Origin: Eledone cirrhosa
Taxonomy: Eukaryota
Assembly: GCA_964016885.1 (NCBI GenBank)
Contig: OZ024757.1
Coordinates: 1,054,001 to 1,118,000 of the forward strand
Direction of reading: 5' to 3'
Length of the DNA stretch: 64,000 bases
A program made the position numbers and the translations under genes. Below, one piece after another: positions 1,982-64,000 of this stretch. The number at the start of each line of letters is the position of its first letter. Position 1 is the stretch's first letter. The notes below the pieces were generated by a model. It did not search any database. It was not told the DNA's origin and was given only the letters and a program-made list of their open reading frames with translations.

Positions 1982-4348
1982 TAACATTTACATTACTCTA
2001 TATATACTATTGTATTTTCACAGGAAAGGCTTTACCTCACATAATATCTCACATAACATTTACATTGCTCTATATATACTATTGTATTTTCACAGTAAAG
2101 GCTTCACCTCACATAATATCTCACATAACATTTACACTACTCTATATATTCTATTGTATTTTCACAGTAAAGGCTTTACGTCACATAATATCTCACATAA
2201 CATTTACATTGCTCTATATATACTATTGTATTTTCACAGTAAAGGCTTTACCTCACATAACATTTACATTACTCTATATATACTATTGTATTTTCACTGT
2301 AAGGGGTTTACCTCACATAATATCTCACATAATATTTACATTACTCTATATATACTATTGTATTTTCACAGTAAAGGCTTTACCTCACATAATATCTCAC
2401 ATAACATTTACATTGCTCTATATATACTATTGTATTTTCACAGTAAAGGCTTTACCTCACATAACGTTTACATTACTCTATATATACTATTGTATTTTCA
2501 CAGTAAGGGCTTTACCTCACATAGTATCTCACATAACATTTACATTACTCTATATATACTATTGTATTTTCACAGTAAAGGCTTTACCTCACATATCTCA
2601 CATAACATTTACATTACTCTATATATACTATTGTATTTTCACAGTAAGGGCTTTACCTCACATAATATCTCACATAACATTTACATTACTCTATATATAC
2701 TATTGTATTTTCACAGGAAAGGCTTTACCTCACATAATATCTCACATAACATTTACATTGCTCTATATATACTATTGTATTTTCACAGTAAAGGCTTCAC
2801 CTCACATAATATCTCACATAACATTTACACTACTCTATATATTCTATTGTATTTTCACAGTAAAGGCTTTACCTCACATAATATCTCACATAACATTTAC
2901 ATTGCTCTATATATACTATTGTATTTTCACAGTAAAGGCTTTACCTCACATAACATTTACATTACTCTATATATACTATTGTATTTTCACTGTAAGGGGT
3001 TTACCTCACATAATATCTCACATAATATTTACATTACTCTATATATACTATTGTATTTTCACAGTAAAGGCTTTACCTCACATAATATCTCACATAACAT
3101 TTACATTGCTCTATATATACTATTGTATTTTCACAGTAAAGGCTTTACCTCACATAACGTTTACATTACTCTATATATACTATTGTATTTTCACAGTAAG
3201 GGCTTTACCTCACATAATATCTCACATAACATTTACATTACTCTATATATACTATTGTATTTTCACAGTAAAGGCTTTACCTCACATATCTCACATAACA
3301 TTTACATTACTCTATATATACTATTGTATTTTCACAGTAAGGGCTTTACCTCACATAATATCTCACATAACATTTACATTACTCTATATATACTATTGTA
3401 TTTTCACAGTAAAGGCTTTACTTCACATAATATCTCACATAACATTTACATTGCTCTATATATACTATTGTATTTTCACAGTAAAGGCTTTACCTCACAT
3501 AATATCTCACATAACATTTACATTGCTCTATATATACTATTGTATTTTCACAGTAAAGGCTTTACCTCACATAATATCTCAGATAACATTTACATTACTC
3601 TATATATACTATTGTATTTTCACAGTTAAGGTTTTACCTTATATAATATCTCATATAACATTTACATTACTCTATATATACTACTGTATTTTCACAGTAA
3701 AGGCTTTACCTCACATAATATCTCACATAACATTTACATTACTCTATATATATATACTATTGTATTTTCATAGTAAAGACTTTACCTCACATATTATCTC
3801 ACATAACATTAATATTACTCTATATATACGATAGTATTTTCACAGTAAAGGCTTTACCTCACATAACATTTACATTACTCTATATATACTATTGTATTTT
3901 CACAGTAAAGGCTTTACCCCACATAATATCTCACATAACATTTACATTACTCTATATATACTATAGTATGTTCACAGTAAAGGCTTTACCTCACATAATA
4001 TCTCACATAACATTTACATTACTCTATATATACTATAGTATGTTCACAGTAAAGGCTTTACCTCACATAATATCTCACATAACATTTACTTTACTCTATA
4101 TATACTATTGTATTTTCACAGTAAAGGCTTTACCCCACATATTATCTCACATAACATTTACATTACTCTATATATACTATTGTATTTTCACAGTAAATGC
4201 TTTACCCCACATAATATCTGACATAACATTTACATTACTCTATATATACTATTGTATTTTCACAGTAAAGGCTTTACCTCACATAATATCTCACATAACA
4301 TTTACATTACTCTATATATACAATTGTATTTTCACAGTAAAGGCTTTA
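1982..4348. repeat. 72-bp AT-rich satellite (60- and 69-bp variants), roughly 34 copies, 693-bp 10-mer higher-order repeat
   Basis: monomer cacataatatctcacataacatttacattactctatatatactattgtattttcacagtaaaggctttacct; diagnostic cagGaaagg variant at 2021 and 2714. Confidence 0.97.
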
Positions 4349-4975
4349 AAGATTTTGAGATTTTGATATTATTTATTTTGTGAACAATACGTTAACATCA
4401 CTATGAATGGCCAGTTTAAACAGAAAGAGGTGAGATAATTCTTGTCAGAGATTTATGGCTGGTTTAAATTCTTGGACATTGACCTCTTGACTATACAAAA
4501 ATATAAATGGGGAACTGAATCAAATGCTATGGTTAAATCTATCAGTTTACATCTCATGGTACATGCTGCTTGTTGATTTAAATATTTTTTTGGAAAAGTC
4601 CAGTTTTGGGTGTTTGCAGTCCCGCAGAATTGCTTTGTAGCCTTTTCATAATATGTAATGTTTGTAGTCCCATTTAGTTGAAGGAACTTGAATTTTAGCC
4701 ATAGTGTAGCTCTATCATATATAATGGTTGTCAGCAGAATTTAGTTGATAGAAACTTCTTAGTTTAGCCATAATGATTTTGTAATATTAACAAAATAATA
4801 AGTTATTTAAATATGTTTAATTAAGAGTGTAACGTTGTCCATTAAAGATATATTTGTCAGGAGAGGGACTATATTTATTTGAACTGTTGAAGGTAGAGAC
4901 ATGGTTGTGTGGTGACATGGACCATGAGATTGACTGAACCATGAAATATAACTGGTATAAAGTTAATGTGGTGTG

Positions 4976-5084: not shown

Positions 5085-5450
5085 ATGAGCAAATGGAGGC
5101 TCCACACGCTGGTGGCCCTGGCAGAAAGACTAGGAAAGGTGTTTCCCCAGAAGATGGCAAGGGAGACACGCTGGAAGAGACAACTCGCGAGGCTCACACC
5201 TGCGGGTAGCCAACTCTGTGCTGATGGTAGTGGGTAGGGAGGTGGTCCTAGGACACCAGAAATCTCCACTGCTTCGGGGTGCAGATGGTGGTGAGTAGGG
5301 AGGTGGAGGTCCTGGGGCCAAGGACACCAGGAATTTCCACTTGGTGGTCTTTCCATCCACAATAACTAGTGATGGTTTAGCAAGGCTGATAAACATGATC
5401 TTGGTTTTCCCAAGATGGCTGTTAAGGTCCACTGGTTAACTCACCGTGTG
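5085..5450 (-). mobile_element. degenerate chimeric non-LTR remnant, copy 1 (RTE-like RT piece plus CRE-like RLE C-terminus)
   Basis: minus-strand HLGKTKIMFISLAKP..IVDGKT followed by AVEISGVLG, ELATRRCEPRE and FQRVSLAIFWGN; homologous to 24878-25410. Confidence 0.7.
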
Positions 5451-5770
5451 GTAAACCATGGTGAGTGGGATGTCCAGCTTGTACAGTCACCAAACTATCC
5501 ACTAGATATCACTGAAATAAGAAACTACAAGTCAAAAAATGATATATATTTAAATGAATATAATTTCCGAATTAAAAAACAGTCCTAAGATCGAATCCCT
5601 CACCATCAACTGTACCACCAATACACTAATAATTTCATTGTAAAAATATCTTTACTCCCAACTAGTACCGAATTACTTCCCTTCCTTTCGTTTATATTTT
5701 TTTTAAACCCAAATTTCAAGAATAGTTGTAAATATCACTAATATATTTAATACAATTTCGGCCTTCGCAG

Positions 5771-8700
5771 TGATGTGTTGACTGTCTCAGACTACCAGTC
5801 TACCTGACTGGCTTGTGGACTGTCTCTCAGACTACCAGTCTACCTGGCTGGCTTGTGGACTGTCTCAGACTACCAGTCTACCTGGCTGGCTTGCGGACTG
5901 TCTCAGACTACCAGTCTACCTGGCTGGCTTGTGGACTGTCTCAGACTACCAGTCTACCTGGCTGGCTTGCGGACTGTCTCAGACTACCAGTCTACCTGGC
6001 TGGCTTGCGGACTGTCTCAGACTACCAGTCTACCTGACTGGCGTGGTGACTGTCTCTCAGACTACCAGTCTACCTGGCTGGCTTGTGGACTGTCTCAGAC
6101 TACCAGTCTACCTGGCTGGCTTGCGGACTGTCTCAGACTACCAGTCTACCTGGCTGGCTTGCGGACTGTCTCAGACTACCAGTCTACCTGACTGGCGTGG
6201 TGACTGTCTCTCAGACTACCAGTCTACCTGGCTGGCTTGTGGACTGTCTCAGACTACCAGTCTACCTGGCTGGCTTGCGGACTGTCTCAGACTACCAGTC
6301 TACCTGGCTGGCTTGTGGACTGTCTCAGACTACCAGTCTACTTGACTGGCGTGGTGACTGTCTCTCAGACTACCATTCTACCTGGCTGGCTTGTGGACTG
6401 TCTCAGACTACCAGTCTACCTGGCTGGCTTGTAGACTGTCTCAGACTACTAGTCTACCTGGCTGGCTTGTGGACTGTGTCTCAGACTACCAGTCTACCTA
6501 GCTGGCTTGTGGACTGTCTCAAACTACCAGTCTACCTGGCTGGCTTGTGGACTGTGTCTCAGACTACCAGTCTACCTGGCTGACTTGTGGACTGTCTCAG
6601 ACTACCAGTCTACTTGACTGGCGTGGTGACTGTCTCTCAGACTACCATTCTACCTGGCTGGCTTGTGGACTGTCTCAGACTACCAGTCTACCTGGCTGGC
6701 TTGTAGACTGTCTCAGACTACTAGTCTACCTGGCTGGCTTGTGGACTGTGTCTCAGACTACCAGTCTACCTGGCTGGCTTGTGGACTGTGTCTCAGACTA
6801 CCAGTCTACCTGGCTGACTTGTGGACTGTGTCTCAGACAACCAGTCTACCTGGCTGGCTTGTGGACTGTCTCAGACTACCAGTCTACCTGGCTGGCTTGT
6901 GGACTGTGTCTCAGACTACCAGTCTACCTGGCTGGCTTGTGGACTGTCTCAGACTACCAGTCTACCTGGCTGGCTTGTGGACTGTGTCTCAGACTACCAG
7001 TCTACCTGGCTGGCTTGTGGACTGTCTCAGACTACCAGTCTACCTGGCTGGCTTGTGGACTGTGTCTCAGACTACCAGTCTACCTGGCTGGCTTGTGGAC
7101 TGTCTCAGACTACCAGTCTACCTGGCTGACTTGTGGACTGTGTCTCAGACAACCAGTCTACCTGGCTGGCTTGTGGACTGTCTCAGACTACCAGTCTACC
7201 TGGCTGGCTTGTGGACTGTGTCTCAGACTACCAGTCTACCTGGCTGGCTTGTGGACTGTCTCAGACTACCAGTCTACCTGGCTGGCTTGTGGACTGTGTC
7301 TCAGACTACCAGTCTACCTGGCTGGCTTGTGGACTGTCTCAGACTACCAGTCTACCTGGCTGGCTTGTGGACTGTGTCTCAGACTACCAGTCTACCTGGC
7401 TGACTTGTGGACTGTCTCAGACTACCAGTCTACCTGGCTGGCTTGTGGAAGGTGTTTCACACTACCAGTCTACCTGGCTGACTTGTGGACTGTGTCTCAG
7501 ACAACCAGTCTACCTGGCTGGCTTGTGGACTGTGTCTCAGACTACCAGTCTACCTGGCTGGCTTGTGGAAGGTGTTTCACACTACCAGTCTACCTGGCTG
7601 GCTTGTGAACTGTGTCTCAGACTACCAGTCTACCTGGCTGGCTTGTGGACTGTCTCAAACTACCAGTCTACCTGGCTGGCTTGTGGACTGTCTCAGACTA
7701 CCAGTCTACCTGGCTGGCTTGTGTACTGTGTCTCACACTACCAGTCTACCTGGCTGACTTGTGGACTGTGTCTCAGACTACCAGTCTACCTGGCTGGCTT
7801 GTGGACTGTCTCAGACTACCAGTCTACCTGGCTGGCTTGTGGACTGTGTCTCAGACTAGCAGTCTACCTGGCTGGCTTGTGGACTGTCTCAGATTACCAG
7901 TCTACCTGGCTGGCTTGTGGACTGTCTCAGAGTACCAGTCTACCTGGTTGATGTGTGACTGTCAAGTCGGTCTGGAGTTCTTTTGTTTAGATATCAAGTG
8001 AGTTACCTCCATTTATAATATTATCTCCTTATTTATTATAGAAATGGCTGGCTTGTGGACTGTCTCAGACTACCAGTCTACCTGGCTGGCTTGTGGACTG
8101 TCTCAGACTACCAGTCTACCTGGCTGGCTTGTGGACTGTCTCAGACTACCATTCTACCTGGTTGGCTTGTGGACTGTGTCTCTACCAGTCTACCTGGCTG
8201 ACTTGTGGACTGTCTCAGACTACCAGTCTACCTGGCTGGCTTGTGGACTGTCTCAGACTACCAGTCTACCTGGCTGGCTTGTGGACTGTCTCAGACTACC
8301 AGTCTACCTGGCTGGCTTGTGGACTGTCTCAGACTACCAGTCTACCTGGCTGGCTTGTGGACTGTCTCAGACTACCAGTCTACCTGGCTGGCTTGTGGAC
8401 TGTCTCAGACTACCAGTCTACCTGGCTGACTTGTGAACTGTCTCACACTACCAGTCTACCTGGCTGGCTTGTGGAGTGTCTCAGACTACCATTCTACCTG
8501 GTTGGCTTGTGGACTGTGTCTCTACCAGTCTACCTGGCTGGCTTGTGGACTGTCTCAGACTACCAGTCTACCTGGCTGGCTTGTGGACTGTCTCAGACTA
8601 CCAGTCTACCTGGCTGGCTTGTGGACTGTCTCAGACTACCAGTCTACCTGGCTGGCTTGTGGACTGTCTCAGACTACCAGTCTACCTGGCTGGCTTGTGG

Positions 8701-11700
8701 ACTGTCTCAGACTACCAGTCTACCTGGCTGGCTTGTGGACTGTCTCAGACTACCAGTCTACCTGGCTGACTTGTGAACTGTCTCAGACTACCAGTCTACC
8801 TGGCTGGCTTGTGGACTGTCTCAGACTACCATTCTACCTGGTTGGCTTGTGGACTGTGTCTCTACCAGTCTACCTGGCTGGCTTGTGGACTGTCTCAGAC
8901 TACCAGTCTACCTGGCTGGCTTGTGGACTGTCTCAGACTACCAGTCTACCTGGCTGGCTTGTGGACTGTCTCAGACTACCAGTCTACCTGGCTGGCTTGT
9001 GGACTGTCTCAGACTACCAGTCTACCTGGCTGGCTTGTGGACTGTCTCAGACTACCAGTCTACCTGGCTGGCTTGTGGACTGTCTCAGACTACCAGTCTA
9101 CCTGGCTGACTTGTGAACTGTCTCACACTACCAGTCTACCTGGCTGGCTTGTGGAGTGTCTCACACTACCAGTCTACCTGGCTGGCTTGTGAAGTGTCTC
9201 AGACTACCAGTCTACCTGGCTGACTTGTGGACTGTGTCTCAGACTACCAGTCTACCTGGCTGGCTTGTGGACTGTGTCTCAGACTACCAGTCTACCTGGC
9301 TGGCTTGTGGACTGTGTCTCAGTCTAGCAGTCTACCTGGCTGGCTTGTGGACTGTCTCAGACTAGCAGTCTACCTGGCTGGCTTGTGGACTGTCTCAGAT
9401 TACCAGTCTACCTGGCTGGCTTGTGGACAGTCTCAGACTACCAGTCTACCTGGCTGGCTTGTGGACTGTGTCTCAGACTACCAGTCTACCTGGCTGTCTT
9501 GTGGACTGTCTCAGACTACCAGTCTACCTGGCTGGCTTGTGGACTGTCACACAATACCAGTCTACCTGGCTGGCTTGTGGACTGTCTCACACTACCAGTC
9601 TACCTGGCTGGCTTGTGGACTGTGTCTCTACCAGTCTACCTGGCTGACTTGTGGACTGTCTCAGACTACCAGTCTACCTGGCTGGCTTGTGTACCGTCTC
9701 CCACTACCAGTCTACCTGGCTGGCTTGTGGACTGTCTCAGACTACCAGTCTACCTGGCTGATATGTGGACTGTCTCAGACTACCAGTCTACCTGGCTGGC
9801 TTGTGGACTGTGTCTCACACTACCAGTCTACCTGGCTGGCTTGTGGACTGTCTCAGACTACCAGTCTACATGGCTGGCTTGTGGACTGTCTAAGACTACC
9901 AGTCTACCTGGCTGGCTTGTGGACTGACTCAGACTACCAGTCTACCTGGCTGGTTTGTGGACTGTCTCAGACTAGACTACCAGTCTACCTAGATGGCTTG
10001 TGGACTGTCTCAGACTACCAGTCTACCTGGCTGGCTTGTGGACTGTCTCACACTACCAGTCTACCTGGCTGGCTTGTGGACTGTGTCTCAGACTAGCAGT
10101 CTACCTGGCTGGCTTGTGGACTGTCTCAGATTACCAGTCTACCTGGCTGGCTTGTGGACTGTCTCAGACTACCAGTCTACCTGGCTGGCTTGTGGACTGT
10201 CTCTCAGACTAGCAGTCTACCTGGCTGGCTTGTGGACTGTCTCAGACTACCAGTCTACCTGGCTGGCTTGTGGACTGTCTCTCAGACTACCAGTCTACCT
10301 GGCTGGCTTGTGGACTGTGTCTCAGACTACCAGTCTACCTAGCTGGCTTGTGGACTGTCTCAAACTACCAGTCTACATGGCTGGCTTGTGGAGGGTGTCT
10401 CAGACTAGCAGCCTACCTGGCTGGCTTGTGGACTGTCTCAGACTACCAGTCTACCTGGCTGGCTTGTGGACTGTCTCAGATTACCAGTCTACCTGGCTGG
10501 CTTGTGGACTGTGTCTCTACGAGTCTACCTGGCTGGCTTGTGTACCGTCTCAGACTACCAGTCTACCTGGCTGGCTTGTGGACTGTCTCAGACTACCAGT
10601 CTACCTGGCTGGCTTGTGGACTGTCTCAGACTACCATTCTACCTGGTTGGCTTGTGGACTGTGTCTCTACCAGTCTACCTGGCTGACTTGTGGACTGTCT
10701 CAGACTACCAGTCTACCTGGCTGGCTTGTGGACTGTCTCAGACTACCAGTCTACCTGGCTGGCTTGTGGACTGTCTCAGACTACCAGTCTACCTGGCTGG
10801 CTTGTGGACTGTCTCAGACTACCAGTCTACCTGGCTGGCTTGTGGACTGTCTCAGACTACCAGTCTACCTGGCTGGCTTGTGGACTGTCTCAGACTACCA
10901 GTCTACCTGGCTGACTTGTGAACTGTCTCACACTACCAGTCTACCTGGCTGGCTTGTGGAGTGTCTCAGACTACCATTCTACCTGGTTGGCTTGTGGACT
11001 GTGTCTCTACCAGTCTACCTGGCTGGCTTGTGGACTGTCTCAGACTACCAGTCTACCTGGCTGGCTTGTGGACTGTCTCAGACTACCAGTCTACCTGGCT
11101 GGCTTGTGGACTGTCTCAGACTACCAGTCTACCTGGCTGGCTTGTGGACTGTCTCAGACTACCAGTCTACCTGGCTGGCTTGTGGACTGTCTCAGACTAC
11201 CAGTCTACCTGGCTGGCTTGTGGACTGTCTCAGACTACCAGTCTACCTGGCTGACTTGTGAACTGTCTCAGACTACCAGTCTACCTGGCTGGCTTGTGGA
11301 CTGTCTCAGACTACCATTCTACCTGGTTGGCTTGTGGACTGTGTCTCTACCAGTCTACCTGGCTGGCTTGTGGACTGTCTCAGACTACCAGTCTACCTGG
11401 CTGGCTTGTGGACTGTCTCAGACTACCAGTCTACCTGGCTGGCTTGTGGACTGTCTCAGACTACCAGTCTACCTGGCTGGCTTGTGGACTGTCTCAGACT
11501 ACCAGTCTACCTGGCTGGCTTGTGGACTGTCTCAGACTACCAGTCTACCTGGCTGGCTTGTGGACTGTCTCAGACTACCAGTCTACCTGGCTGACTTGTG
11601 AACTGTCTCACACTACCAGTCTACCTGGCTGGCTTGTGGAGTGTCTCACACTACCAGTCTACCTGGCTGGCTTGTGAAGTGTCTCAGACTACCAGTCTAC

Positions 11701-14700
11701 CTGGCTGACTTGTGGACTGTGTCTCAGACTACCAGTCTACCTGGCTGGCTTGTGGACTGTGTCTCAGACTACCAGTCTACCTGGCTGGCTTGTGGACTGT
11801 GTCTCAGTCTAGCAGTCTACCTGGCTGGCTTGTGGACTGTCTCAGACTAGCAGTCTACCTGGCTGGCTTGTGGACTGTCTCAGATTACCAGTCTACCTGG
11901 CTGGCTTGTGGACAGTCTCAGACTACCAGTCTACCTGGCTGGCTTGTGGACTGTGTCTCAGACTACCAGTCTACCTGGCTGTCTTGTGGACTGTCTCAGA
12001 CTACCAGTCTACCTGGCTGGCTTGTGGACTGTGTCTCTACCAGTCTACCTGGCTGACTTGTGGACTGTCTCAGACTACCAGTCTACCTGGCTGGCTTGTG
12101 TACCGTCTCCCACTACCAGTCTACCTGGCTGGCTTGTGGACTGTCTCAGACTACCAGTCTACCTGGCTGATATGTGGACTGTCTCAGACTACCAGTCTAC
12201 CTGGCTGGCTTGTGGACTGTGTCTCACACTACCAGTCTACCTGGCTGGCTTGTGGACTGTCTCAGACTACCAGTCTACATGGCTGGCTTGTGGACTGTCT
12301 AAGACTACCAGTCTACCTGGCTGGCTTGTGGACTGACTCAGACTACCAGTCTACCTGGCTGGTTTGTGGACTGTCTCAGACTAGACTACCAGTCTACCTA
12401 GATGGCTTGTGGACTGTCTCAGACTACCAGTCTACCTGGCTGGCTTGTGGACTGTCTCACACTACCAGTCTACCTGGCTGGCTTGTGGACTGTGTCTCAG
12501 ACTAGCAGTCTACCTGGCTGGCTTGTGGACTGTCTCAGATTACCAGTCTACCTGGCTGGCTTGTGGACTGTCTCAGACTACCAGTCTACCTGGCTGGCTT
12601 GTGGACTGTCTCTCAGACTAGCAGTCTACCTGGCTGGCTTGTGGACTGTCTCAGACTACCAGTCTACCTGGCTGGCTTGTGGACTGTCTCTCAGACTACC
12701 AGTCTACCTGGCTGGCTTGTGGACTGTGTCTCAGACTACCAGTCTACCTAGCTGGCTTGTGGACTGTCTCAAACTACCAGTCTACATGGCTGGCTTGTGG
12801 AGGGTGTCTCAGACTAGCAGCCTACCTGGCTGGCTTGTGGACTGTCTCAGACTACCAGTCTACCTGGCTGGCTTGTGGACTGTCTCAGATTACCAGTCTA
12901 CCTGGCTGGCTTGTGGACTGTGTCTCTACGAGTCTACCTGGCTGGCTTGTGTACCGTCTCAGACTACCAGTCTACCTGGCTGGCTTGTGGACTGTCTCAG
13001 ACTACCAGTCTACCTGGCTGGCTTGTGGACTGTCTCAGACTACCATTCTACCTGGTTGGCTTGTGGACTGTGTCTCTACCAGTCTACCTGGCTGACTTGT
13101 GGACTGTCTCAGACTACCAGTCTACCTGGCTGGCTTGTGGACTGTCTCAGACTACCAGTCTACCTGGCTGGCTTGTGGACTGTCTCAGACTACCAGTCTA
13201 CCTGGCTGGCTTGTGGACTGTCTCAGACTACCAGTCTACCTGGCTGGCTTGTGGACTGTCTCAGACTACCAGTCTACCTGGCTGGCTTGTGGACTGTCTC
13301 AGACTACCAGTCTACCTGGCTGACTTGTGAACTGTCTCACACTACCAGTCTACCTGGCTGGCTTGTGGAGTGTCTCAGACTACCATTCTACCTGGTTGGC
13401 TTGTGGACTGTGTCTCTACCAGTCTACCTGGCTGGCTTGTGGACTGTCTCAGACTACCAGTCTACCTGGCTGGCTTGTGGACTGTCTCAGACTACCAGTC
13501 TACCTGGCTGGCTTGTGGACTGTCTCAGACTACCAGTCTACCTGGCTGGCTTGTGGACTGTCTCAGACTACCAGTCTACCTGGCTGGCTTGTGGACTGTC
13601 TCAGACTACCAGTCTACCTGGCTGGCTTGTGGACTGTCTCAGACTACCAGTCTACCTGGCTGACTTGTGAACTGTCTCAGACTACCAGTCTACCTGGCTG
13701 GCTTGTGGACTGTCTCAGACTACCATTCTACCTGGTTGGCTTGTGGACTGTGTCTCTACCAGTCTACCTGGCTGGCTTGTGGACTGTCTCAGACTACCAG
13801 TCTACCTGGCTGGCTTGTGGACTGTCTCAGACTACCAGTCTACCTGGCTGGCTTGTGGACTGTCTCAGACTACCAGTCTACCTGGCTGGCTTGTGGACTG
13901 TCTCAGACTACCAGTCTACCTGGCTGGCTTGTGGACTGTCTCAGACTACCAGTCTACCTGGCTGGCTTGTGGACTGTCTCAGACTACCAGTCTACCTGGC
14001 TGACTTGTGAACTGTCTCACACTACCAGTCTACCTGGCTGGCTTGTGGAGTGTCTCACACTACCAGTCTACCTGGCTGGCTTGTGAAGTGTCTCAGACTA
14101 CCAGTCTACCTGGCTGACTTGTGGACTGTGTCTCAGACTACCAGTCTACCTGGCTGGCTTGTGGACTGTGTCTCAGACTACCAGTCTACCTGGCTGGCTT
14201 GTGGACTGTGTCTCAGTCTAGCAGTCTACCTGGCTGGCTTGTGGACTGTCTCAGACTAGCAGTCTACCTGGCTGGCTTGTGGACTGTCTCAGATTACCAG
14301 TCTACCTGGCTGGCTTGTGGACAGTCTCAGACTACCAGTCTACCTGGCTGGCTTGTGGACTGTGTCTCAGACTACCAGTCTACCTGGCTGTCTTGTGGAC
14401 TGTCTCAGACTACCAGTCTACCTGGCTGGCTTGTGGACTGTCACACACTACCAGTCTACCTGGCTGGCTTGTGGACTGTCTCACACTACCAGTCTACCTG
14501 GCTGGCTTGTGGACTGTGTCTCTACCAGTCTACCTGGCTGACTTGTGGACTGTCTCAGACTACCAGTCTACCTGGCTGGCTTGTGTACCGTCTCCCACTA
14601 CCAGTCTACCTGGCTGGCTTGTGGACTGTCTCAGACTACCAGTCTACCTGGCTGATATGTGGACTGTCTCAGACTACCAGTCTACCTGGCTGGCTTGTGG

Positions 14701-17700
14701 ACTGTGTCTCACACTACCAGTCTACCTGGCTGGCTTGTGGACTGTCTCAGACTACCAGTCTACATGGCTGGCTTGTGGACTGTCTAAGACTACCAGTCTA
14801 CCTGGCTGGCTTGTGGACTGACTCAGACTACCAGTCTACCTGGCTGGTTTGTGGACTGTCTCAGACTAGACTACCAGTCTACCTAGATGGCTTGTGGACT
14901 GTCTCAGACTACCAGTCTACCTGGCTGGCTTGTGGACTGTCTCACACTACCAGTCTACCTGGCTGGCTTGTGGACTGTGTCTCAGACTAGCAGTCTACCT
15001 GGCTGGCTTGTGGACTGTCTCAGATTACCAGTCTACCTGGCTGGCTTGTGGACTGTCTCAGACTACCAGTCTACCTGGCTGGCTTGTGGACTGTCTCTCA
15101 GACTAGCAGTCTACCTGGCTGGCTTGTGGACTGTCTCAGACTACCAGTCTACCTGGCTGGCTTGTGGACTGTCTCTCAGACTACCAGTCTACCTGGCTGG
15201 CTTGTGGACTGTGTCTCAGACTACCAGTCTACCTAGCTGGCTTGTGGACTGTCTCAAACTACCAGTCTACATGGCTGGCTTGTGGAGGGTGTCTCAGACT
15301 AGCAGCCTACCTGGCTGGCTTGTGGACTGTCTCAGACTACCAGTCTACCTGGCTGGCTTGTGGACTGTCTCAGATTACCAGTCTACCTGGCTGGCTTGTG
15401 GACTGTGTCTCTACGAGTCTACCTGGCTGGCTTGTGTACCGTCTCAGACTACCAGTCTACCTGGCTGGCCTGTGGACTGTCTCAGACTACCAGTCTACCT
15501 GGTTGGCCTGTGGACTGTGTCTCAGACTACCAGTCTACCTGGCTGTCTTGTGGACTGTCTCACACTACCAGTCTACCTGGCTGGCTTGTGGACTGTCTCA
15601 CACTACCAGTCTACCTGGCTGGCTTGTGGACTGTGTCTCTACCAGTCTAGCTGGCTGACTTGTGGACTGTCTCAGACTACCAGTCTACCTGGCTGGCTTG
15701 TGTACCGTGTCACACTACCAGTCTACCTGGCTGGCTTGTGGACTGTCTCAGACTATCAGTCTACCTGGCTGGCTTGTGGACTGTCTCAGACTACCAGTCT
15801 ACCTGGCTGATATGTGGACTGTCTCAGACTACCAGTCTACCTGGCTGGCTTGTGGACTGTGTGTCACACTACCAGTCTACCTGGCTGGCTTGTGGACTGT
15901 CTAAGACTACCAGTCTACCTGGCTGGCTTGTGGACTGACTCAGACTACCAGTCTACCTGGCTGGTTTGTGGACTGTCTCAGACTACCAGTCTACCTAGAT
16001 GGCTTGTGGACTGTCTCAGACTACCAGTCTACCTGGCTGGCTTGTGGACTGTCTCACACTACCAGTCTACCTGGCTGGCTTGTGGACTGTCTCTCAGACT
16101 AGCAGTCTATCTGGCTGGCTTGTGGACTGTCTCAGATTACCAGTCTACCTGGCTGGCTTGTGGACTGTGTCTCAGACTACCAGTCTACCTGGCTGGCTTG
16201 TGGAGGGTGTCTCAGACTACCAGTCTACCTAGCTGGCTTGTGGACTGTCTCAAACTACCAGTCTACATGGCTGGCTTGTGGAGGGTGTCTCAGACTAGCA
16301 GCCTACCTGGCTGGCTTGTGGACTGTCTCAGAGTAGCAGTCTACCTGGCTGGCTTGTGGACTGTCTCAGATTACCAGTCTACCTGGCTGGCTTGTGGACT
16401 GTCTCACACTACCAGTCTACCTGGCTGGCTTGTGGACTGTGTCTCTACGAGTCTACCTGGCTGGCTTGTGTACCGTCTCACACTACCAGTCTACCTGGCT
16501 GGCCTGTGGACTGTCTCAGACTACCAGTCTACCTGGTTGGCTTGTGGACTGTGTCTCAGACTACCAGTCTACCTGGCTGTCTTGTGGACTGTCTCAGACT
16601 ACCAGTCTACCTGGCTGGCTTGTGGACTGTGTCTCAGACTACCAGTCTACCTGGCTGTCTTGTGGACTGTCTCACACTACCAGTCTACCTGGCTGTCTTG
16701 TGGACTGTCTCACACTACCAGTCTACCTGGCTGGCTTGTGGACTGTCTCACACTACCAGTCTACCTGGCTGGCTTGTGGACTGTGTCTCTACCAGTCTAC
16801 CTGGCTGACTTGTGGACTGTCTCAGACTACCAGTCTACCTGGCTGGCTTGTGTACCGTGTCACACTACCAGTCTACCTGGCTGGCTTGTGGACTGTCTAA
16901 GACTACCAGTCTACCTGGCTGGCTTGTGGACTGACTCAGACTACCAGTCTACCTGGCTGGTTTGTGGACTGTCTCAGACTACCAGTCTACCTAGATGGCT
17001 TGTGGACTGTCTCAGACTACCAGTCTACATGGCTGGCTTGTGTACCGTGTCACACTACCAGTCTACCTGGCTGGCTTGTGGACTGTCTAAGACTACCAGT
17101 CTACCTGGCTGGCTTGTGGACTGACTCAGACTACCAGTCTACCTGGCTGGTTTGTGGACTGTCTCAGACTACCAGTCTACCTAGATGGCTTGTGGACTGT
17201 CTCAGACTACCAGTCTACATGGCTGGCTTGTGGACTTTGTCTCAGACTAGCAGTCTACCTGGCTGGCTTGTGGACTGTCTCTGACTACCAGTCTACCTGG
17301 CTGGCTTGTGGACTGTCTCAGACTACCAGTCTACCTGGTTGATGTGTGACTGTCTCAGACTACCAGTCTACCTGGTTGATGTGTGACTGTCAAGCCGGTC
17401 TGGTGTTCTTTTGTATAGATATCAAGTGAGTTACCTCCATTTATAATATTTTCTCCTTATTTATTATAGAAATCGCTGGCTTGCAGACTGTCTCAGACTA
17501 CCAGTCTACCTGTCGTGCTTGTGGACTGTCTCAGACTACCAGTCTACCTGTCTGGCTTGTGGACTGTCTCAGACTACCAGTCTACCTGGCTGGCTTGTGG
17601 ACTGTGTCTCTACCAGTCTACCTGGCTGACTTGTGGACTGTCTCAGACTACCAGTCTACCTGGCTGGCTTGTGGACTATGTCTCAGACTACCAGTCTACC

Positions 17701-20700
17701 TGGCTGGCTTGTGGACTGTCTCAGACTATCAGTCTACCTGGCTGGCTTGTGGACTGTCTCAGACTACCAGTCTACCTGGCTGGCTTGTGGACTGTCTCAG
17801 ACTATCAGTCTACCTGGCTGGCTTGTGGACTGTCTCAGACTACCAGTCTACCTGGCTGATACGTGGACTGTCTCAGACTACCAGTCTACCTGGCTGGCTG
17901 GCTTGTGGACTGTGTCTCACACTACCAGTCTACCTGGCTGGCTTGTGGACTGTCTCAGACTAGCAGTCTACCTGGCTGGCTTGTGGACTGTCTCAGACTA
18001 CCAGTCTACCTGGCTGGCTTGTGGGCTCTGTCTCAGACTACCAGTCTACCTGGCTGGCTTGTGGACTGTGTCTCAGACTACCAGTCTACCTGGCTGGCTT
18101 GTGGACTGTGTCTCTACCAGTCTACCTGGCTGACGTGTGGACTGTCTCAGACTACCAGTCTACCTGGCTGGCTTGTGGACTGTGTCTCTACCAGTCTACC
18201 TGGCTGACTTGTGGACTGTCTCACACTAGCAGTCTACCTGGCTGGCTCGTGGACTGTCTCAGACTACCAATCAAACTGTCTGGCTTGTGGACTGTCTCAC
18301 ACAACCAGTCTACTTGGCTGGCTTGTGGACTGTCTCACACTACCAGTCTACCTGGCTGGCTTGTGGACTGTCTCTCAGACTAGCAGTCTACCTGGCTGGC
18401 TTGTGGACTGTCTCTCAGACTAGCAGTCTACCTGGCTGACTTGTGGACTGTGTCGGACTACCAGTCTACCTGGTTGACGTGTGACTGTCAAGCTGGTCTG
18501 GAGTTCTTTTGTATAGATATCAAGTGAGTTACCTCCATTTATAATATTATCTCCTTATTTATTATAGAAATGGCTGGCTTGTGGACTGTCTCAGACTACC
18601 AGTCTACCTGGCTGGCTTGTGGACTGTCTCAGACTACGAGTCTACCTGGCTGGCTTTTGGACTGTTTCAGACTACCAGTCTACCTGGCTGGCTTGTGGGC
18701 TCTGTCTCAGACTACCAGTCTACCTGGCTGACTTGTGGACTGTGTCTCTACCAGTCTACCTGGCTGAGTTGTGGACTGTCTCAGACTACCAGTCTACCTG
18801 GCTGAGTTGTGGACTGTCTCAAACTACCAGTCTACCTGGCTGGCTTGTGGACTGTCTCAGACTACCAGTCGACCTGGCTGGCTTCTGGACTATGTCTCAG
18901 ACTACCAGTCTACCTGGCTGGCTTGTGGACTGTGTCTCTACCAGTCTACCTGGCTGGCTCGTGGACTGTCTCAGACTACCAGTCGACCTGGCTGGCTTCT
19001 GGACTATGTCTCAGACTACCAGTCTACCTGGCTGGCTTGTGGACTGTGTCTCACACTACCAGTCTACCCGGCTGGCTTGTGGACTGTCTCAGACTAGCAG
19101 TCTACCTGGCTGATATGTGGACTGTTTCAGACTACCAGTCTACCCGGCTGGCTTGTGGACTGTCTCAGACTACCAGTCTACCTGGCTGATATGTGGACTG
19201 TCTCAGACTACCAGTCTACCTGGCTGGCTTGTGGACTGTGTCTCACACTACCAGTCTACCTGGCTGGCCTGTGGACTGTCTCAGACTAGCAGTCTACCTG
19301 GCTGGCTTGTGGACTGTCTAAAACTACCAGTCTACCTGGCTGGCTTGTGGACTGTCTCAGACTACCAGTCTACCTGGCTGGTTTGTGGAGTGTCTCAGAC
19401 TACCAGTCTACCTGGCTGGCTTGTGGACTGTCTCAGACTACCAATCAAACTGTCTGGCTTTTGGACTGTCTCACACAACCAGTCTACCTGGCTGGCTTGT
19501 GGACTGTCTCACACTACCAGTCTACCTGGCTGGCTTGTGGGCTATCTCAGATTACCAGTCTACCTGGTTGATGTGTGACTGTCAAGCCGGTCTGGAGTTC
19601 TTTTGTATAGATATCAAGTGAGTTTCCTCCATTTATAATATTATCTCCTTATTTATTATAGAAATGGCTGGCTTGTGGACTGTCTCATACTACCAGTCTA
19701 CCTGGCTGGCTTGTGGACTGTCTCAGACTACCAGTCTACCTGGCTGGCTTGTGGACTGTTTCAGACTACCAGTCTACCTGGCTGGCTTGTGGACTGTCTC
19801 AGACCACCAGTCTACCTGGCTGGCTTGTGGACTGTCTCAGACTACCAGTCTACCTGGCTGGCTTGTGGACTCTCTAAGACTTCCAGTCTACCTGGATGGC
19901 TTGTGGACTGTCTCACACTACCAGTCTACCTGGCTGGCTTGTGGACTGTCTCAGACTACCAGTCTACCTGGCTGGCTTGTGGACTGTGTCTCTACCAGTC
20001 TACCTGGCTGGCTTGTGGACTGTCTCAGACTACCAGTCTACCTGGCTGGCTTGTGGACTGTGTCTCTACCAGTCTACCTGGCTGGCTTGTGGACTGTCTC
20101 AGACTACCAGTCTACCTGGCTGGCTTGTGGACTGTGTCTCTACCAGTCTACCTGGCTGACTTCTGGACTGTCTCAGACTACCAGTCTACCTGGCTGGCTT
20201 GTGGACTGTCTCACACTACCAGTCTACCTAGCTGATATGTGGACTGTCTCAGACTACCAGTCTACCTGGCTGGCTTGTGGACTGTGTCTCACACTACCAG
20301 TCTACCTGGCTGGCTTGTGGACTGTCTCAGACTAGCAGTCTACCTGGCTGGCTTGTGGACTGTCTAAGACTACCAGTCTACCTGGCTGGCTTGTGGACTG
20401 TCTCAGACTACCAGTCTACCTGGCTGGCTTGTGGACTGTCTCAGATTACCAGTCTACCTGGCTGACTTGTGGACTGTGTCGGACTACCAGTCTACCTGGT
20501 TGATGTGTGACTGTCAAGCCGGTCTGGAGTTCTTTTGTATAGATATCAAGTGAGTTACCTCCCTTTATAATATTTTCTCCTTATTTATTATAGAAATGGC
20601 TGGCTTGTGGACTGTCTCAGACTAGCAGTCTACCTGGCTGGCTTGTGGACTGTCTCAGACTAGCAGTCTACCTGGCTGGCTTGTGGACTGTCTAAGACTA

Positions 20701-21929
20701 CCAGTCTACCTGGCTGGCTTGTGGACTGTCTCACACTACCAGTCTACCTGGCTGGCTTGTGGACTGTCTCTCAGACTAGCAGTCTACCTGGCTGGTTTGT
20801 GGACTGTCTCAGATTACCAGTCTACCTGGCTGACTTGTGGACTGTGTCGGACTACCAGTCTACCTGGTTGATGTGTGACTGTCAAGCCGGTCTGGAGTTC
20901 TTTTGTATAGATATCAAGTGAGTTACCTCCCTTTATAATATTTTCTCCTTATTTATTATAGAAATGGCTGGCTTGTGGACTGTGTCTCAGACTACCAGTC
21001 TACCTGGCTGGCTTGTGGACTGTCTCAGACTACCAGTCTACCTGGCTGGCTTGTGGACTGTCTCAGACTACCATTCTACCTGGCTGGCTTGTGGACTGTG
21101 TCTCTACCAGTCTACCTGGCTGGCTTGTGGACTGTTTCAGACTACCAGTCTACCTGGCTGGCTTGTGGACTGTCTCAGACCACCAGTCTACCTGGCTGGC
21201 TTGTGGACTGTCTCAGACTACCAGTCTACCTGGCTGGCTTGTGGACTGTGTCACACTACCAGTCTACCTGGCTGGCTTGTGGACTGTCTCAGACTACCAG
21301 TCTACCTGGCTGACTTGTGGACTGTGTCGGACTACCAGTCTACCTGGCTGGCTTGTGGACTATCTCAAACTACCAGTCTACCTGGCTGATATGTGGACTG
21401 TCTCAGACTACCAGTCTACCTGGCTGGCTTGTGGACTGTGTCTCAGACTACCATTCTACCTGGCTGGCTTGTGGACTGTGTCTCTACCAGTCTACCTGGC
21501 TGGCTTGTGGACTGTCTCAGACCACCAGTCTACCTGGCTGGCTTGTGGACTGTCTCAGACTACCAGTCTACCTGGCTGGCTTGTGGACTGTGTCTCTACC
21601 AGTCTACCTTGCTGGCTTGTGGACTGTCTCAGACTACCAGTCTACCTGGCTGGCTTGTGGACTGTCTCAGACTATCACTCTACCTGGCTGGCTTGTGGAC
21701 TATCTCAAACTACCAGTCTACCTGGCTGATATGTGGACTGTCTCAGACTACCAGTCTACCTGGCTGGCTTGTGGACTGTGTCTCACACTACCAGTCTACC
21801 TGGCTGGCTTGTGGACTGTCTCAGACTACCAGTCTACCTGGCTGACTTGTGGACTGTGTCGGACTACCAGTCTACCTGGTTGATGTGTGACTGTCAAGCC
21901 GGTCTGGTGTTCTTTTGTATAGATATCAA
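5771..21929 (+). pseudogene. putative 87-nt exon (DVLTVSDYQSTWLMCDCQAGLEFFCIDI) interrupted by the 38-bp satellite expansion
   Basis: acceptor ttcggccttcgcag ending 5770, donor aa/gtgagt at 21930; collapsing the array to one unit gives an open phase 2-2 segment; the terminal copy reads GLVFF, most internal copies GLEFF. Confidence 0.45.
5779..21895. repeat. 38-bp satellite (36- and 40-bp variants), roughly 400 copies, with 340-bp and about 2.4-2.5-kb higher-order repeats and six internal copies of the right flank
   Basis: monomer gactgtctcagactaccagtctacctggctggcttgtg; identical ORF strings at 8433/10918/13327 and at 9993/12402, with a matching start at 14887. Confidence 0.98.
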
Positions 21930-22747
21930 GTGAGTTACCTCCCTTTATAATATTATTTCCTTATTTATTATAGAAATATACTTCTTGTTTAAAAAGAAAT
22001 TATATTTTTTTCTTCTTTCCCTTGCTGAAAGGTATTTAGCGCATAGATTTTAGGAGATAAATTTGATTTTTTAGAGACAATATCTTTAAATAGACGAATT
22101 AAAAGCCATTTATGAGGCTAAAAGCCCATCCCTTTGTTGCTCCAAATAACTGAACATATATTTATATATATATATATGTATAAACATTTTTATATTAAAA
22201 GACTTGTAAATATTTTCACAATCAAAACACTCTCTCGGAGGTTACGACAAACAACACAACTTATAACTGAGAAGGTTGGATATCTGTAAGAAAAATAATA
22301 TTAAAAAATATGAAAGTCATTTACAGACATTGTCAATAAATAGAAAATGTTAAACTTTATAAAATTCTTCCAATTTTTCTTCTTTTTTCTTTTGTACATA
22401 CACACTAACACGTGTAGATGTATACATGCATCTATATATACCTGTGTAATTAGATGTATAGATATGTATACAGCTAACTACACATTGACGATCCAGATCG
22501 ATCATCGAACTGCATTGATATTAGTGGTGGAACGTATTCATGATTTTTTAAGGTTACCTATGGAGGAAAATATAATTTTTATCAGGTATCTATGTTTGAA
22601 ATTTTTGTTAAATTTTAATATGATACTGTAATGAAACGTGTTCTTACATTCTATACAGATTATCTCCTGTTAAAGTTGATATGTTCTGTTATACATTTAT
22701 ATCATTAGATATACATATGTTTATATCTACGTATATATGTCTGACTG

Positions 22748-23096
22748 GAGGCACATGGCTTAGTGGTTAGAGCATTGGCCTTGCAATCGAAAAGTTATGA
22801 GTTCAATTCTCAGACCGGGTGATGTGTTGTTTCCTTGAGCAAGACACTTTATTTCACATTGCTCCAGTTTACTCAGCTGTAGAAATGAGATGATAGGGAC
22901 TGGGGTCCCTATCATTCCACTGCAAAGTGGTCGTGGAGGTGCCACGGCAAAAAAGCGCCCAGCACTCACTGTAAATGAGGTTGGTGTTAGGAAGAGCATC
23001 CAGCTGTAGAAATCAAGCCAGAGTCAGTTCCCGTCCCACCCTTGCAAGCAGGGAAAAGCTGACGTAAAATGAAATGATGATGATGATGATGATGAT
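22748..23096 (+). mobile_element. tRNA-derived CORE-like SINE (family B head) with RTE-type (GAT)n tail
   Basis: A box tggcttagtggtt, B box gagttcaattctc, CORE-like ccttgagcaagacactttatttcac...actcagctgtagaaatgag, (gat)n tail. Confidence 0.8.
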
Positions 23097-23676
23097 ATGT
23101 CATTCACTATTTTGTAATGATCAAATGATCAGATTTATTCCTTGAATTTTCGTTTGAGCTTATTCTTAGGTGATAAAAGGCATCTTTGAGATTTTCTCAA
23201 ACATGACATATATAATTTTAAATGTAATATATATATATGAATATATATATGAATTCATTCGCCTGATATAGGGGTTTCCTCCCTTGCCGATCCCCATGTG
23301 GGGTCAGCAATAGTCAGTCCTTGTATTAACATTGAACTAAAACCTGTTGAGAAAGTGGCTTCCTTGTTCAATCATCTTACCAGAAGCCTGACAGTATTTA
23401 TGTAAGCGGACGGTACTTGATTTAGGAGCCGCAGAAACCCATATACTGGATTTTACCAACCTTCCAGGGGTCCGGGTAAATTTTCAATACCCGAATTACT
23501 TGATCATTTTTTTTTGGCTATGCGAATGATTGTTTAACCATCGTCTCAGTGTGTTTGGCCTTTAACGTTTGTTATAGCTCTGGTTCATTTGAATCATTGA
23601 GCACTTGCCGCACATCTCGGAGGTTGTTTTTCGTTATTTCGTGGGCCGAAATGCGAATCTCGATAATTTATGTTTG

Positions 23677-23708
<32 letters not shown>

Positions 23709-23857
23709 GATTTGAATGGATACAGTTTAGTTGAAAGGAATTTATTGACACGTGTTTCTATAACAGTTACATAACCTGAAAACAGCTGCTATCTACAAAG
23801 TATTAGTTATGCAGACAATCAATATTTCAATGTTATTATTTACTGTCATTTCATTAA

Positions 23858-24048
23858 GGGCGGTGGATTGGCAGTATCGGTAGAGGGTCGGGCGCCATGC
23901 TTTCCAGCATAGTTACGTCCCTTTACGATCTGAGTTCAAATCCCGCCGAGGTTGACTTTGCCTTTCATCCTTACGGGGTCGATAAAATAAAGTACCAGTA
24001 ATGCACTGGGTAATTGCTGGCCTTGTGCCTAAAGTAGAAACAATTATT
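23858..24048 (+). mobile_element. full-length SINE family A with a 20-bp target-site duplication
   Basis: tRNA-like head with B box gagttcaaatccc; TSD attatttactgtcatttcat at 23835-23854 and 24043-24062. Confidence 0.88.
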
Positions 24049-24244
24049 TACTGTCATTTCATCAGAATAATATTACTGAGGACCTGTTTGGTTTTTATAG
24101 AGAATATTAGGAGAGAGGGGTGAAGTTGTTAGAAGAATAGTTGAGGGAGTGGTTTTTTGATAGCAGTGAGAATTTTTGGTGGCAGTGAGTAATTAGATTC
24201 CCATCTGTTGTTTTGACATTTATATTACAACACAACGGAAAATA

Positions 24245-24249
<5 letters not shown>

Positions 24250-24318
<69 letters not shown>
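24250..24318. repeat. (TA)n microsatellite
   Basis: pure TA run. Confidence 0.98.
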
Positions 24319-24321
<3 letters not shown>

Positions 24322-24662
24322 GATACTTGGGGATGGTCATATTGTTGTAATATTGCCAGAAATAATGACAGAACACTCACTGTTTGGTTGGTATTTGTTT
24401 CGACACATGATTTCTAAACAAATATATATATATTAGTATTGGAGCTCTGAAATAGAAATAGCGATGTATACATGAATCTATGTATAGTATATATGGCAAT
24501 ATACCGTATGTTTAATTAAAAATATTTTGAAGACCATTCGCTATGAGTTTTAAAGTAGTGACTATGTCACTTACTTATTCTCGGCAAAAGCAAAGAAGAG
24601 TGATCAGTAGTCCTGTTTCTCACTCATTAGCATTTAGCAAGACCACTCACTCCTTTGCTTCT

Positions 24663-61700: not shown

Positions 61701-64000
61701 TCTTGTTCTCTCAGTCACACCATAGACTGGTGTCTTGTCCAGGGGGAATCCTGTACTCTCAGTCACACCATAGACTGGTGTCCTGTCCACGGGAAGTTTG
61801 TACTCTCAGTCACACCATAGACTGGTGTCCTGTCTAGGGGGATTCTTCTACTCTCAGTCACAACGTAGACTGGTGTCCTGTCTAGGGGGACTCTTGTACT
61901 CTCAGTCACACCACACCATAGACTGGTGTTCTGTCCAGGGTGAGTCTTGTACTCTCAGGTACACCACACCATAGACTGCTGTCCGTTCAATGGGGAGTCT
62001 TCTACTCTCAGTCACACCATAGACTGGTGTTCTGTCTAGGGGGACTCTTGTACTCTCAGTCACACGACACCAGAGACTGGTGTCCTGTCTAGGGGGAGTC
62101 TTGTACTCTCAGTCCCGCCACACCGTAAACTAGTGTCATGTTTAGAGGGAGTCTTGTACTCTTAGTCACACCATAGACTAGTGTCCTGTCCAGAGGGCGT
62201 CTCATACTCTCAGTCACACCATAGACTGGTGCCCTGTATAGAGGGAGTCTTGAACTCTAGGTCACACCATCGACTGGTGTCCTGTCTAGGGGGACTCGTG
62301 TACTCTCAGTCACACCACACCATAGGCTGGTGTCCTGTCTAGGGGGAGTGTTGTACTCTCAGTCACACCATAGACTGGTGTCCTGTCTAGGGGGAGTCTC
62401 GTATTCTCAGTCACACAATAGACTGGTGTCCTGTCTAGCGGGAAGTATTGTACTCTCAGTCACACCACACCATAGACTTGTAGTCCTGTCTAGGGGGAGT
62501 CTTGTATTCTCAGTCACACCATAGACTGGTGTCCTGTCTAGGGGGCGTCTTGTACTCTCAGTCACACCATAGACTTGTGTCCTGTCTATGTGGGAGTCTT
62601 GTACTCTGTTTCACCATAGACTGGTGTCCTGTCCAGGGGGAGTCTTGTACCTTCAGTCACGCCATAGACTAGTGTCCCGTCTAGGGGGAATCTTATGCTC
62701 TCAGTCACACCATAGAATGGTGTCATGTTTAAGCGGAGTCTTGTACTCTCAGCCACACCACACCGTATACTGGTGTACTGTTCAGGGGATGTCTTGTACT
62801 CTCAATCACACCATAGACTTATGTCCTGTCTAGGGGGAGTCTTGTACTCTCAGTCACACCATTGACTGGTGTCCTGTCCAGGGGAAGTCCTGTACTCTTA
62901 GTCACACCACAAAATAGACTGGTGTCCTGTCTAGGGGGAGTCTTGTACTCTCAGTCACACCATAGACTGGTGTCCTGTCTAGGTGCGAGTCTTGTATTCT
63001 GTCACACTATAGACTGGTGTCCTGTCCAAGGGGAGTCTTGTAATCTCAGTCACACCATAGACTGGTGTCCTGTGTAGGGGGAGTCTTGTACTCTCAGTCA
63101 CACGACACCATAGACTGGTGTCCTGTCTAGGGGGACTCGTGTACTCTCAGTCACACCATAGACTGGTGTCCTGTCTAGGAGGAGTTTTGTACTCTCAGTC
63201 ACACCATAGACTGGTGTCCTGTCTAGGAGGAGTCTTGTACTCTCAGTCACACCATAGACTGGTGTCCTGTCTAGGAGGAGTCTTGTACTCTCAGTCACAC
63301 CATAGACTAGTGTCCTGTCTAGGAGGAGTCTTGTACTCTCAGTCACACCATAGACTGGTGTGCTGTCTAGGAGGAGCCTTGTATTCTCAGTCACACCATA
63401 GACTGGTGTCCTGTCTAGGGGGAGTCTTGTACTCTCAGTCACATCATAGACTGGTGTCCTGTCTAGGGGGAGTCTTGTAGACTCAGTCACACCATAGATG
63501 GTGTCCTGTCTAGGGGGAGTCTTGTACTCTCAGTCACACCATAGACTGCTGTCCTGTCTAGGGAGGAGTCTTGTACTCTCAGTCACACCATAGACTGGTG
63601 TCCTGTCTAGGGGGAGTCTTCTGCTCTCAGTCACACCATACACTGGTGTCCTGTCTAGGGGGAGTCTTGTAGTCTCAGTCACACCATAGACTGGTGTCCT
63701 GTCTAGGGGGAGTCTTGTACTCTCAGTCACAACATTGACTAGTGTCCTGTCTAGGGTGAGTGTTGTACTCTCAGTCACACCACACCATAAACTGGTCTCC
63801 TGTGCAGGGGGAGTCCTGTACTCTCAGCCACACCATAGACTGGTGTCCTGTCCAGGGGGAGTCCTGTACTCTCAGTCACAGCATGGAGAGGTGTCCTGTC
63901 TAGGGGGATTCTTGTATTCTCAGTCCACCACACCATAGACTGGTGTCCTATCCAGGGGGAGACTTGTACTCTCAGTCACACCATAGACTAGAGTCCTGTC
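37790..64000. repeat. 48-bp satellite (46-53-bp variants), over 500 copies, SINE-derived, with 2.8-kb and about 9.7-kb higher-order repeats; runs off the window end
   Basis: monomer ccatagactggtgtcctgtctagggggagtcttgtactctcagtcaca; matching ORF strings offset by 2801, 9699-9749 and 12500 bp. Confidence 0.98.

Follow-up and report, generated by a model that had tools for sequence, protein, structure and literature searches.

The 64,000-base stretch of Eledone cirrhosa DNA analysed here (GenBank assembly GCA_964016885.1, contig OZ024757.1, positions 1,054,001 to 1,118,000 of the forward strand; hereafter the window) raises the question of how several unrelated short sequences came to be tandemly amplified side by side. 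The window is animal DNA in which AT and GT microsatellites and retroelement debris are abundant. Tandem Repeats Finder (TRF) recovers all of the arrays listed in an earlier note on this sequence, with units of 38, 44, 48, 28 and 72 bp and a CRE-like repeat (Table 1). The five longer arrays occupy 46,842 bases by TRF, 73% of the window, which is far beyond chance. On balance it is probable that they are independent minisatellites, two of them derived from transposable elements (TEs), which began with a small duplication, grew in place by slippage or unequal exchange and were then extended by block duplication. The earlier note had proposed that local templates were converted to arrays throughout; a local template is found for one of the six repeats (44 bp) and in-place growth for two (44 and 38 bp), but not for all six.

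The 44-bp array lies within a fragment of a long interspersed nuclear element (LINE), and the peptide translated from its right end matches two LINE ORF2 (second open reading frame) proteins, one of them from a sand fly. If the array is collapsed so that the left flank runs straight into the last unit, the product aligns without gaps to P0005 over 62 residues (127-188), with 55% identity and an E-value of 2e-19 in a small local search; the alignment with P0004 (residues 479-539) is gapless over 61 residues. The source of the unit is a run of ORF2 codons just upstream of the reverse transcriptase (RT) domain. The 36 bases common to the first and last units correspond to P0005 residues 149-160, and the 8 bases left over, the linker, are similar to the Trp145-Leu146 codons. 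Since the collapse restores the LINE frame and both flanks are colinear, the array arose inside the LINE fragment, and the template does continue on both sides, as the earlier note had stated. Judged by the sequence, a local template and growth in place can be regarded as shown here. The seed was possibly a microhomology jump between the codons of Trp145 and Trp163 (54 bases apart; as read from the protein, they would have four bases in common) followed by small deletions. Variants of 35 bp cluster at the right end of the array.

The 38-bp array has taken up part of its own surroundings: it contains six further copies of 98 bp of its right flank, 94.9-96.9% identical to the source. All six stop at one base, and the junctions by which they re-enter the array share a single base at most. 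In their diagnostic positions, column 77 differs from the source in all six and column 28 in five. The copies thus look like one non-homologous capture that was amplified afterwards, which is hard to explain by the insertion of a ready-made satellite, and growth in place can likewise be regarded as shown for this array. A direct repeat (5771-5786 and 21881-21895, 15 of 16 positions identical) marks the two ends of the array, and an internal 37-bp unit that begins with the terminal repeat and continues as a monomer is the product expected of slippage across it.

The template of this array had been called an exon. Its ends are splice-like, with an acceptor-like site on the left and a donor-like site on the right, but no usable homolog was found and the first monomer holds an in-frame stop, although the last one is read through without a stop. 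Elsewhere, 74 acceptor-like and 20 donor-like sites occur in 28,340 strand-bases of non-array DNA, and the pairing at the array ends is estimated to be a 1-6% coincidence, given five arrays and two strands and a post hoc choice. A Pfam search with the 29-residue peptide returned no family, a word search gave no candidate, and the best Atlas score was 0.80, at noise level. Two phmmer matches among 1.84 billion representatives were rejected as unrelated repeat proteins, their scores being sums of five to six weak stretches. "Exon-like" is a fair description, and the exon itself is putative. Each of the six captured flanks (7948-20965) carries the donor-like site, which would make six extra donors if the exon were real.

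The 48-bp unit is a segment of short interspersed nuclear element (SINE) sequence, as the earlier note recognised. It equals a 54-bp segment of a tRNA-headed SINE copy in the window (Table 1) less deletions of 5 and 1 bp, closed at a 3-base overlap. The 48-mers are on average 87% identical to this segment, the reference being the window copy and not a family consensus, and four other SINE copies in the window are 72-88% identical to the same copy. As the value for the 48-mers falls within the range between copies, the neighbouring SINE, which lies 2.4 kb from the array beyond the LINE fragment, is not demonstrably its parent. The tRNA match of a sister copy (22756-22813) is weak, with 27.9 bits, under the gathering score of 29 bits. 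The array starts mid-unit directly after a LINE RT stretch that translates as FVDFEKA, 158 bp beyond the 44-bp array, so that its left flank is LINE and not SINE, and the earlier idea of a SINE converted on the spot is not confirmed. The SINE head was likely lost by deletion next to the array, to judge from the adjoining LINE, which also has an internal deletion; the array may also have come from elsewhere. The 53-bp variants were considered as an ancestral unit of SINE length and rejected, being 80% SINE-like versus 87% for the 48-mers; they look like products of a 5-bp internal duplication. At 35447-35690 a SINE head, an unrelated middle and a piece like the SINE segment of the 48-bp unit are joined to the LINE fragment, forming a mosaic of deletion junctions.

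The CRE-like repeat is found at two loci (A and B in Table 1), as parts of the same chimeric fragment of a non-LTR (long terminal repeat) retroelement. The loci are 83% identical over 241 bp, their flanks do not align, and they share the upstream junction to an RT-like piece together with a first-unit variant. The common junction and variant imply that the first duplication likely predates the copying. The seed was thus likely inherited in the parent element, and local growth would then account for no more than the additional units of locus B. This counts against birth at the site for this repeat, since the same monomer with unrelated flanks is what the earlier note had named as a sign of dispersal. 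Alternatively, a piece of 400 bp may have been duplicated locally long ago. At each locus the RT-like piece (25340-25420 and 5340-5450, both on the minus strand), which we take to be RTE-type, joins the CRE-like piece at an identical base, and the fusion looks like a chimeric non-autonomous element or an old local duplication. The translations PIAVETSG and LFQRVSLAI resemble CRE-clade motifs, and the label is tentative: Pfam gave no family, and the best Atlas match (0.84) belongs to none.

The 72-bp unit consists of a 60-bp base with, in most copies, a 12-bp internal duplication. Neither a template nor a second copy of the 72-bp and 28-bp units was found in the window, nor a second copy of the flanks of about 200 bp of the 72-bp array. 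No direct repeat was seen flanking this array, and a masked self-comparison of its flanks, which would miss short subterminal repeats, gave no match. By analogy, a Helitron/Helentron origin is possible for both arrays. The open frames through the 72-bp array (659 residues at 1855-3834 on the plus strand, and 560 residues) were rejected as genes, the unit being stop-free and divisible by three and the Pfam matches weak and under the cut-off; a C2H2 finger on the minus strand is a passing resemblance that has no support. The 659-residue frame could mislead gene callers. The octopus genome paper of 2015 is said to have found repeats of 70-90 bp enriched near zinc-finger clusters.

The monomers of the six repeats are unrelated. 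The best 5-mer is common to four of the six (p=0.25 against shuffles), three of the 15 pairwise alignments have p below 0.05 (0.027, 0.027 and 0.043), none after correction, and when doubled the monomers fold with unremarkable energies (z from -1.15 to +1.34). A shared motif or a hairpin as common cause is ruled out by these shuffle, pairwise and folding tests, and the unrelated, unstructured monomers support the earlier suggestion that array formation is sequence-independent. Their GC contents range from 28 to 55% (72-bp 28%, 48-bp 50%, 44-bp 55%), and within the window the 72-, 38-, 28- and 44-bp monomers each had no match outside their own array. The divergence of modal-length units from their column majority is 2.6% for the 72-bp array (25 units), 3.5% for the 38-bp array (282 units), 3.5% for the 44-bp array (36 units) and 7.1% for the 28-bp array (7 units); in the 48-bp array it is 6.5% for the 48-mers (282 units) and 9.3% for the 53-mers (106 units). 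Such unequal values indicate separate events and not one, and the supposed single series of stages is not supported. The last unit is incomplete in all four arrays whose two ends are both in view.

Higher-order amplification, also anticipated in the earlier note, is visible as duplications of 0.7-9.7-kb blocks in three arrays. The 72-bp array contains a 693-bp duplication (972 bp at 98.6% identity with an offset of 693), blocks of 2.4-2.5 kb are repeated at 99.7-100% identity in the 38-bp array, and the 48-bp array has block duplications at offsets of 2.8 and 9.7 kb with 99.2-99.8% identity. These kilobase blocks represent either recent amplification or, in part, assembly artefacts.

A scheme consistent with these observations would begin with an ordinary stretch of 30-70 bp being duplicated once, through slippage across a direct repeat or through the end-joining of a break. 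In the case of the CRE-like unit this event likely preceded the spread to two loci and happened in the parent element. Monomers would then be added by exchange or conversion where copies on sister chromatids or homologs are out of register. The same exchange or conversion would also spread variants and small deletions, and would once have carried the 98-bp flank into the 38-bp array. In the last step whole blocks, seen as sequence but subject to the assembly, would have been duplicated. The arrays could persist in a region that is apparently gene-poor and unconstrained: among the 148 longest of the 197 stop-free frames of at least 33 residues outside the arrays, one has a Pfam match, to a GIY-YIG domain (29163-29729). 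ARAGORN found no tRNA and a PDB search gave no match, and the 95 Rfam matches in 21800-38500 are all under the gathering score and mostly microsatellite noise. The templates would be mainly transposons because transposon debris makes up most of the non-array DNA here. Dedicated machinery is unnecessary for such arrays.

Several observations weigh against this account. The linkers of the 72-bp unit (7 or 19 nt) and of the 44-bp unit (8 nt) are not exactly reproduced by the flanks, the boundaries of the SINE segment share only 3 nt exactly, at a spacing of 54 bp, and a 13-bp boundary match is not among the best of the element. The microhomology-seeded slippage envisaged in the earlier note is backed by the short direct repeat and the 37-bp product of the 38-bp array, but a clear flanking direct repeat is present at only one of the five long arrays; this repeat may itself be a diverged last monomer and not a pre-existing seed, and the right flank is still monomer-like for about 23 bases. 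The known seeding models explain 6% of human TE-derived repeats (PMC3389668). Some regional or genome-wide boost is probably needed, because arrays of 16 and more than 26 kb and a coverage of 73% far exceed the two to three copies of Alu-derived repeats (PMC3389668).

An alternative, the reading of the earlier note, is a special expansion zone, subtelomeric, pericentromeric or a hotspot of break-induced replication, which would turn any local stretch of 30-70 bp into a long array far faster than elsewhere in the genome. It would accommodate five unrelated arrays in 64 kb, two of them nearly abutting, as well as the internal deletions, chimeric junctions and four fold-back repeats of the spacer DNA. 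Human variable number tandem repeats (VNTRs) with units longer than 15 bp and more than 60% GC are 21-fold enriched in subtelomeres (PMC7608644), and the retrotransposon-derived arrays of Lathyrus expand mainly in primary constrictions (PMC7004042). However, the window may have been flagged for its repeat density and the comparison is confined to it, the telomere motif has no match within its 64 kb, no sequence feature is diagnostic of break-induced replication, and the CRE-like seed is older than its placement here. Moreover, human TE-derived repeats are described as lacking genomic hotspots (PMC3389668), and simple repeats are abundant throughout octopus genomes (14.7% in O. minor, PMC6279123). 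We therefore regard such a zone as unlikely. Its stronger form, in which zones convert any such stretch, LINE coding sequence and a real host exon alike, into multi-kilobase arrays at a high sequence-independent rate, destroying or multiplying the exon, seems rather more doubtful; if it were true, satellite birth could be traced locus by locus against unexpanded orthologs.

Import of pre-existing repeats by mobile elements or ectopic exchange is likely right for the CRE-like seed, with its two loci, unrelated flanks, common junction and first-unit variant. The 48-bp array, which starts mid-unit against a LINE without a SINE head and resembles the nearby SINE no more closely than SINE copies resemble each other, would also fit, and in oyster, arrays with as many as about 90 monomers are found within Helitron/Helentron elements (PMC10048060). 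As an account of the whole window it is nevertheless very doubtful: the LINE reading frame continues on both sides of the 44-bp array, the flank capture in the 38-bp array is left unexplained, and the 72-, 38-, 28- and 44-bp monomers have no other copy in the window. Array lengths could also be inflated by the assembly, through stacked haplotypes or duplicated read overlaps, the true arrays being shorter. Blocks of 1.5-3.7 kb at 99.2-100% identity, including a mismatch-free pair of 1,486 bp, and a perfect fold-back with arms of at least 140 bp (33265-33545) would be expected from such errors. Structured differences of 2.6-9.3% between monomers and their column majority, captured flanks diverged by 3-5%, and the hundreds of copies that remain after removal of every near-identical block make this highly improbable. 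Independent minisatellites growing in place therefore remain the preferred interpretation.

The best reading of the process is that it is of a known kind, the birth and growth of TE-derived minisatellites, and that density and length stand out. Ahmed and Liang (2012, PMC3389668) assign a TE origin and expansion in situ to 7,276 of 31,472 human minisatellites (23%). As here, the unit is taken from part of a SINE or LINE and expands where it lies, sometimes with short direct repeats or an incomplete last unit, and some repeats are inherited within the element (LTR12, L1PA). In contrast, the human Alu-derived cases average 2.3-2.4 units, compared with 44 and more than 530 here, accompanied by kilobase blocks and several unrelated arrays in 64 kb. 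Under the limits given in that paper (at least 20 bp, GC of at least 40%, at least two copies), the 44-, 48-, 38- and 28-bp units would be counted and the 72-bp unit, with 28% GC, would not. The 44- and 48-bp units also fall within its definition of TE-derived (at least 70% TE-similar or an overlap of one period); the 38-, 72- and 28-bp units are not assigned to it. Against its filter of 95% likeness, which is a different measure, stand divergences of 3.5% for the 44-bp units, 6.5% for the 48-mers and 9.3% for the 53-mers, which places the SINE array just under the filter. PMC3389668 discusses flanking-repeat and incomplete-terminal-unit models for seeding. The models of Haber-Louis and Taylor-Breden, as presented there, would agree with the 15/16 direct repeat of the 38-bp array and with the incomplete last units, but no repeat is evident at the 72-bp array, and the 44- and 48-bp units have overlaps of only 3-4 nt, one of them inferred.

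Many satellites of Lathyrus sativus (Vondrak et al., PMC7004042) derive from retroelements, and an element-borne repeat there grows at one insertion, as the CRE-like unit did from 2 to about 3.5 copies; this unit is the only one here in which a repeat carried by the element expanded after insertion. Unlike the 44-bp unit, which comes from single-copy LINE coding sequence, the Lathyrus seeds are pre-existing repeats in the 3' untranslated regions of LTR elements, and the resulting arrays expand in one favourable region (PMC7004042). Human VNTRs (Linthorst et al., PMC7608644; Course et al., PMC8327921) are likewise single-locus arrays with units longer than 15 bp and internal block duplication or deletion, but the class enriched in subtelomeres exceeds 60% GC (PMC7608644), above all monomers in the window. 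The repeats of oyster Helitron/Helentron elements (PMC10048060) are comparable as short arrays dispersed through the mobile DNA of a mollusc; however, the 44-bp array lies inside a LINE frame and no carrier element was identified in the window. Satellites derived from SINEs and from LINE ORF2 are reviewed for several animals (PMC9659126), 69% of the A. fangsiao genome is repeats (PMC9795677) and a CORE SINE has been noted in Octopus (PMC4758252). The parts drawn on of PMC10547256 and of the O. vulgaris preprint 10.1101/2023.05.16.540928 contain nothing relevant to such arrays, and no study of them was found in the octopus and cephalopod literature on satellites, minisatellites and tandem repeats, mostly in non-subscription papers. 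The route from a single-copy stretch to a long array is still poorly understood, models covering 6% of the human TE-derived cases (PMC3389668). Given orthologs and haplotypes, this locus would be a good test case for models of seeding and growth, because the 44-bp template can still be read on either side of its array and the captured flanks preserve a record of how the 38-bp array grew; from this one window it can be called no more than a dense case of a known process.

Table 1. Tandem arrays of the window and the features used to interpret them, in order of position.
Feature	Position	Strand	Remarks
72-bp minisatellite	1982-4348	none	33.7 copies (TRF)
Locus A, chimeric non-LTR retroelement fragment	5136-5451	-	RT-like piece and CRE-like restriction-like endonuclease (RLE) piece; 2 copies of 60-68-bp unit
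Acceptor-like site and left copy of 16-bp direct repeat	5768-5786	+	CAG (5768-5770) after pyrimidine run, then the repeat
38-bp minisatellite	5776-21879	none	422.8 copies (TRF); 36/38/40-bp variants
First internal copy of right flank	7948-8045	+	Other five start at 17376, 18474, 19568, 20500 and 20868
37-bp unit	17340-17376	+	Starts with terminal direct repeat, continues as array monomer
Right flank of 38-bp array	21880-21977	+	Right direct-repeat copy; donor-like GT at 21930; source of captured copies
Locus B, same chimeric fragment as locus A	24934-25349	-	About 3.5 copies of 60-68-bp unit
68-bp repeat	25073-25238		2.4 copies (TRF); CRE-like unit
28-bp minisatellite	26092-26357	none	9.6 copies (TRF)
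tRNA-headed SINE copy	35136-35390	+	Contains the 54-bp counterpart of the 48-bp monomer (35297-35350)
LINE ORF2, left flank of 44-bp array	35672-35737	+	P0005 residues 127-148, one stop
44-bp minisatellite	35738-37630	none	43.8 copies (TRF); LINE ORF2-derived
LINE ORF2, right flank of 44-bp array	37631-37788	+	To P0005 residue 188, internal deletion, then 249-256; abuts 48-bp array
48-bp minisatellite	37789-64000	none	At least 533.8 copies (TRF); continues past window end; 47/48/52/53-bp variants

The spacer DNA holds several further structures. The perfect fold-back mentioned above has arms that are 100% complementary around a 1-base spacer, and is either a palindromic element or a read fold-back artefact. 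An inverted repeat at 32421-32730 has arms of 129 bp (98%) and a 52-bp spacer, similar to a miniature inverted-repeat transposable element; nested inverted repeats with arms of 21-46 bp (24431-24871) adjoin locus B of the CRE-like repeat, and a 66-bp hairpin (80%) lies at 28745-28879. The frame with the GIY-YIG match (29125-29729, plus strand, 189 residues) is preceded by a 33-bp inverted repeat and is presumably a fragment of a Penelope-like element. Its match has an E-value of 1.4e-4 and 22.5 bits versus a cut-off of 22.6, and no homolog of similar length was found. A second SINE-like family has four copies (672-780, 23862-24066, 26626-26817 and 30705-30908), all on the plus strand, 90-96% identical and with a common 3' end, representing a young subfamily or local duplication. 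At 27183-27785 a compound AT/GT microsatellite is itself repeated 5.5 times with a period of about 98-104 bp, a case of higher-order microsatellite growth. In a LINE fragment at 27860-27980 on the minus strand, a short stretch occurs twice about 85 bp apart, possibly another early duplication.

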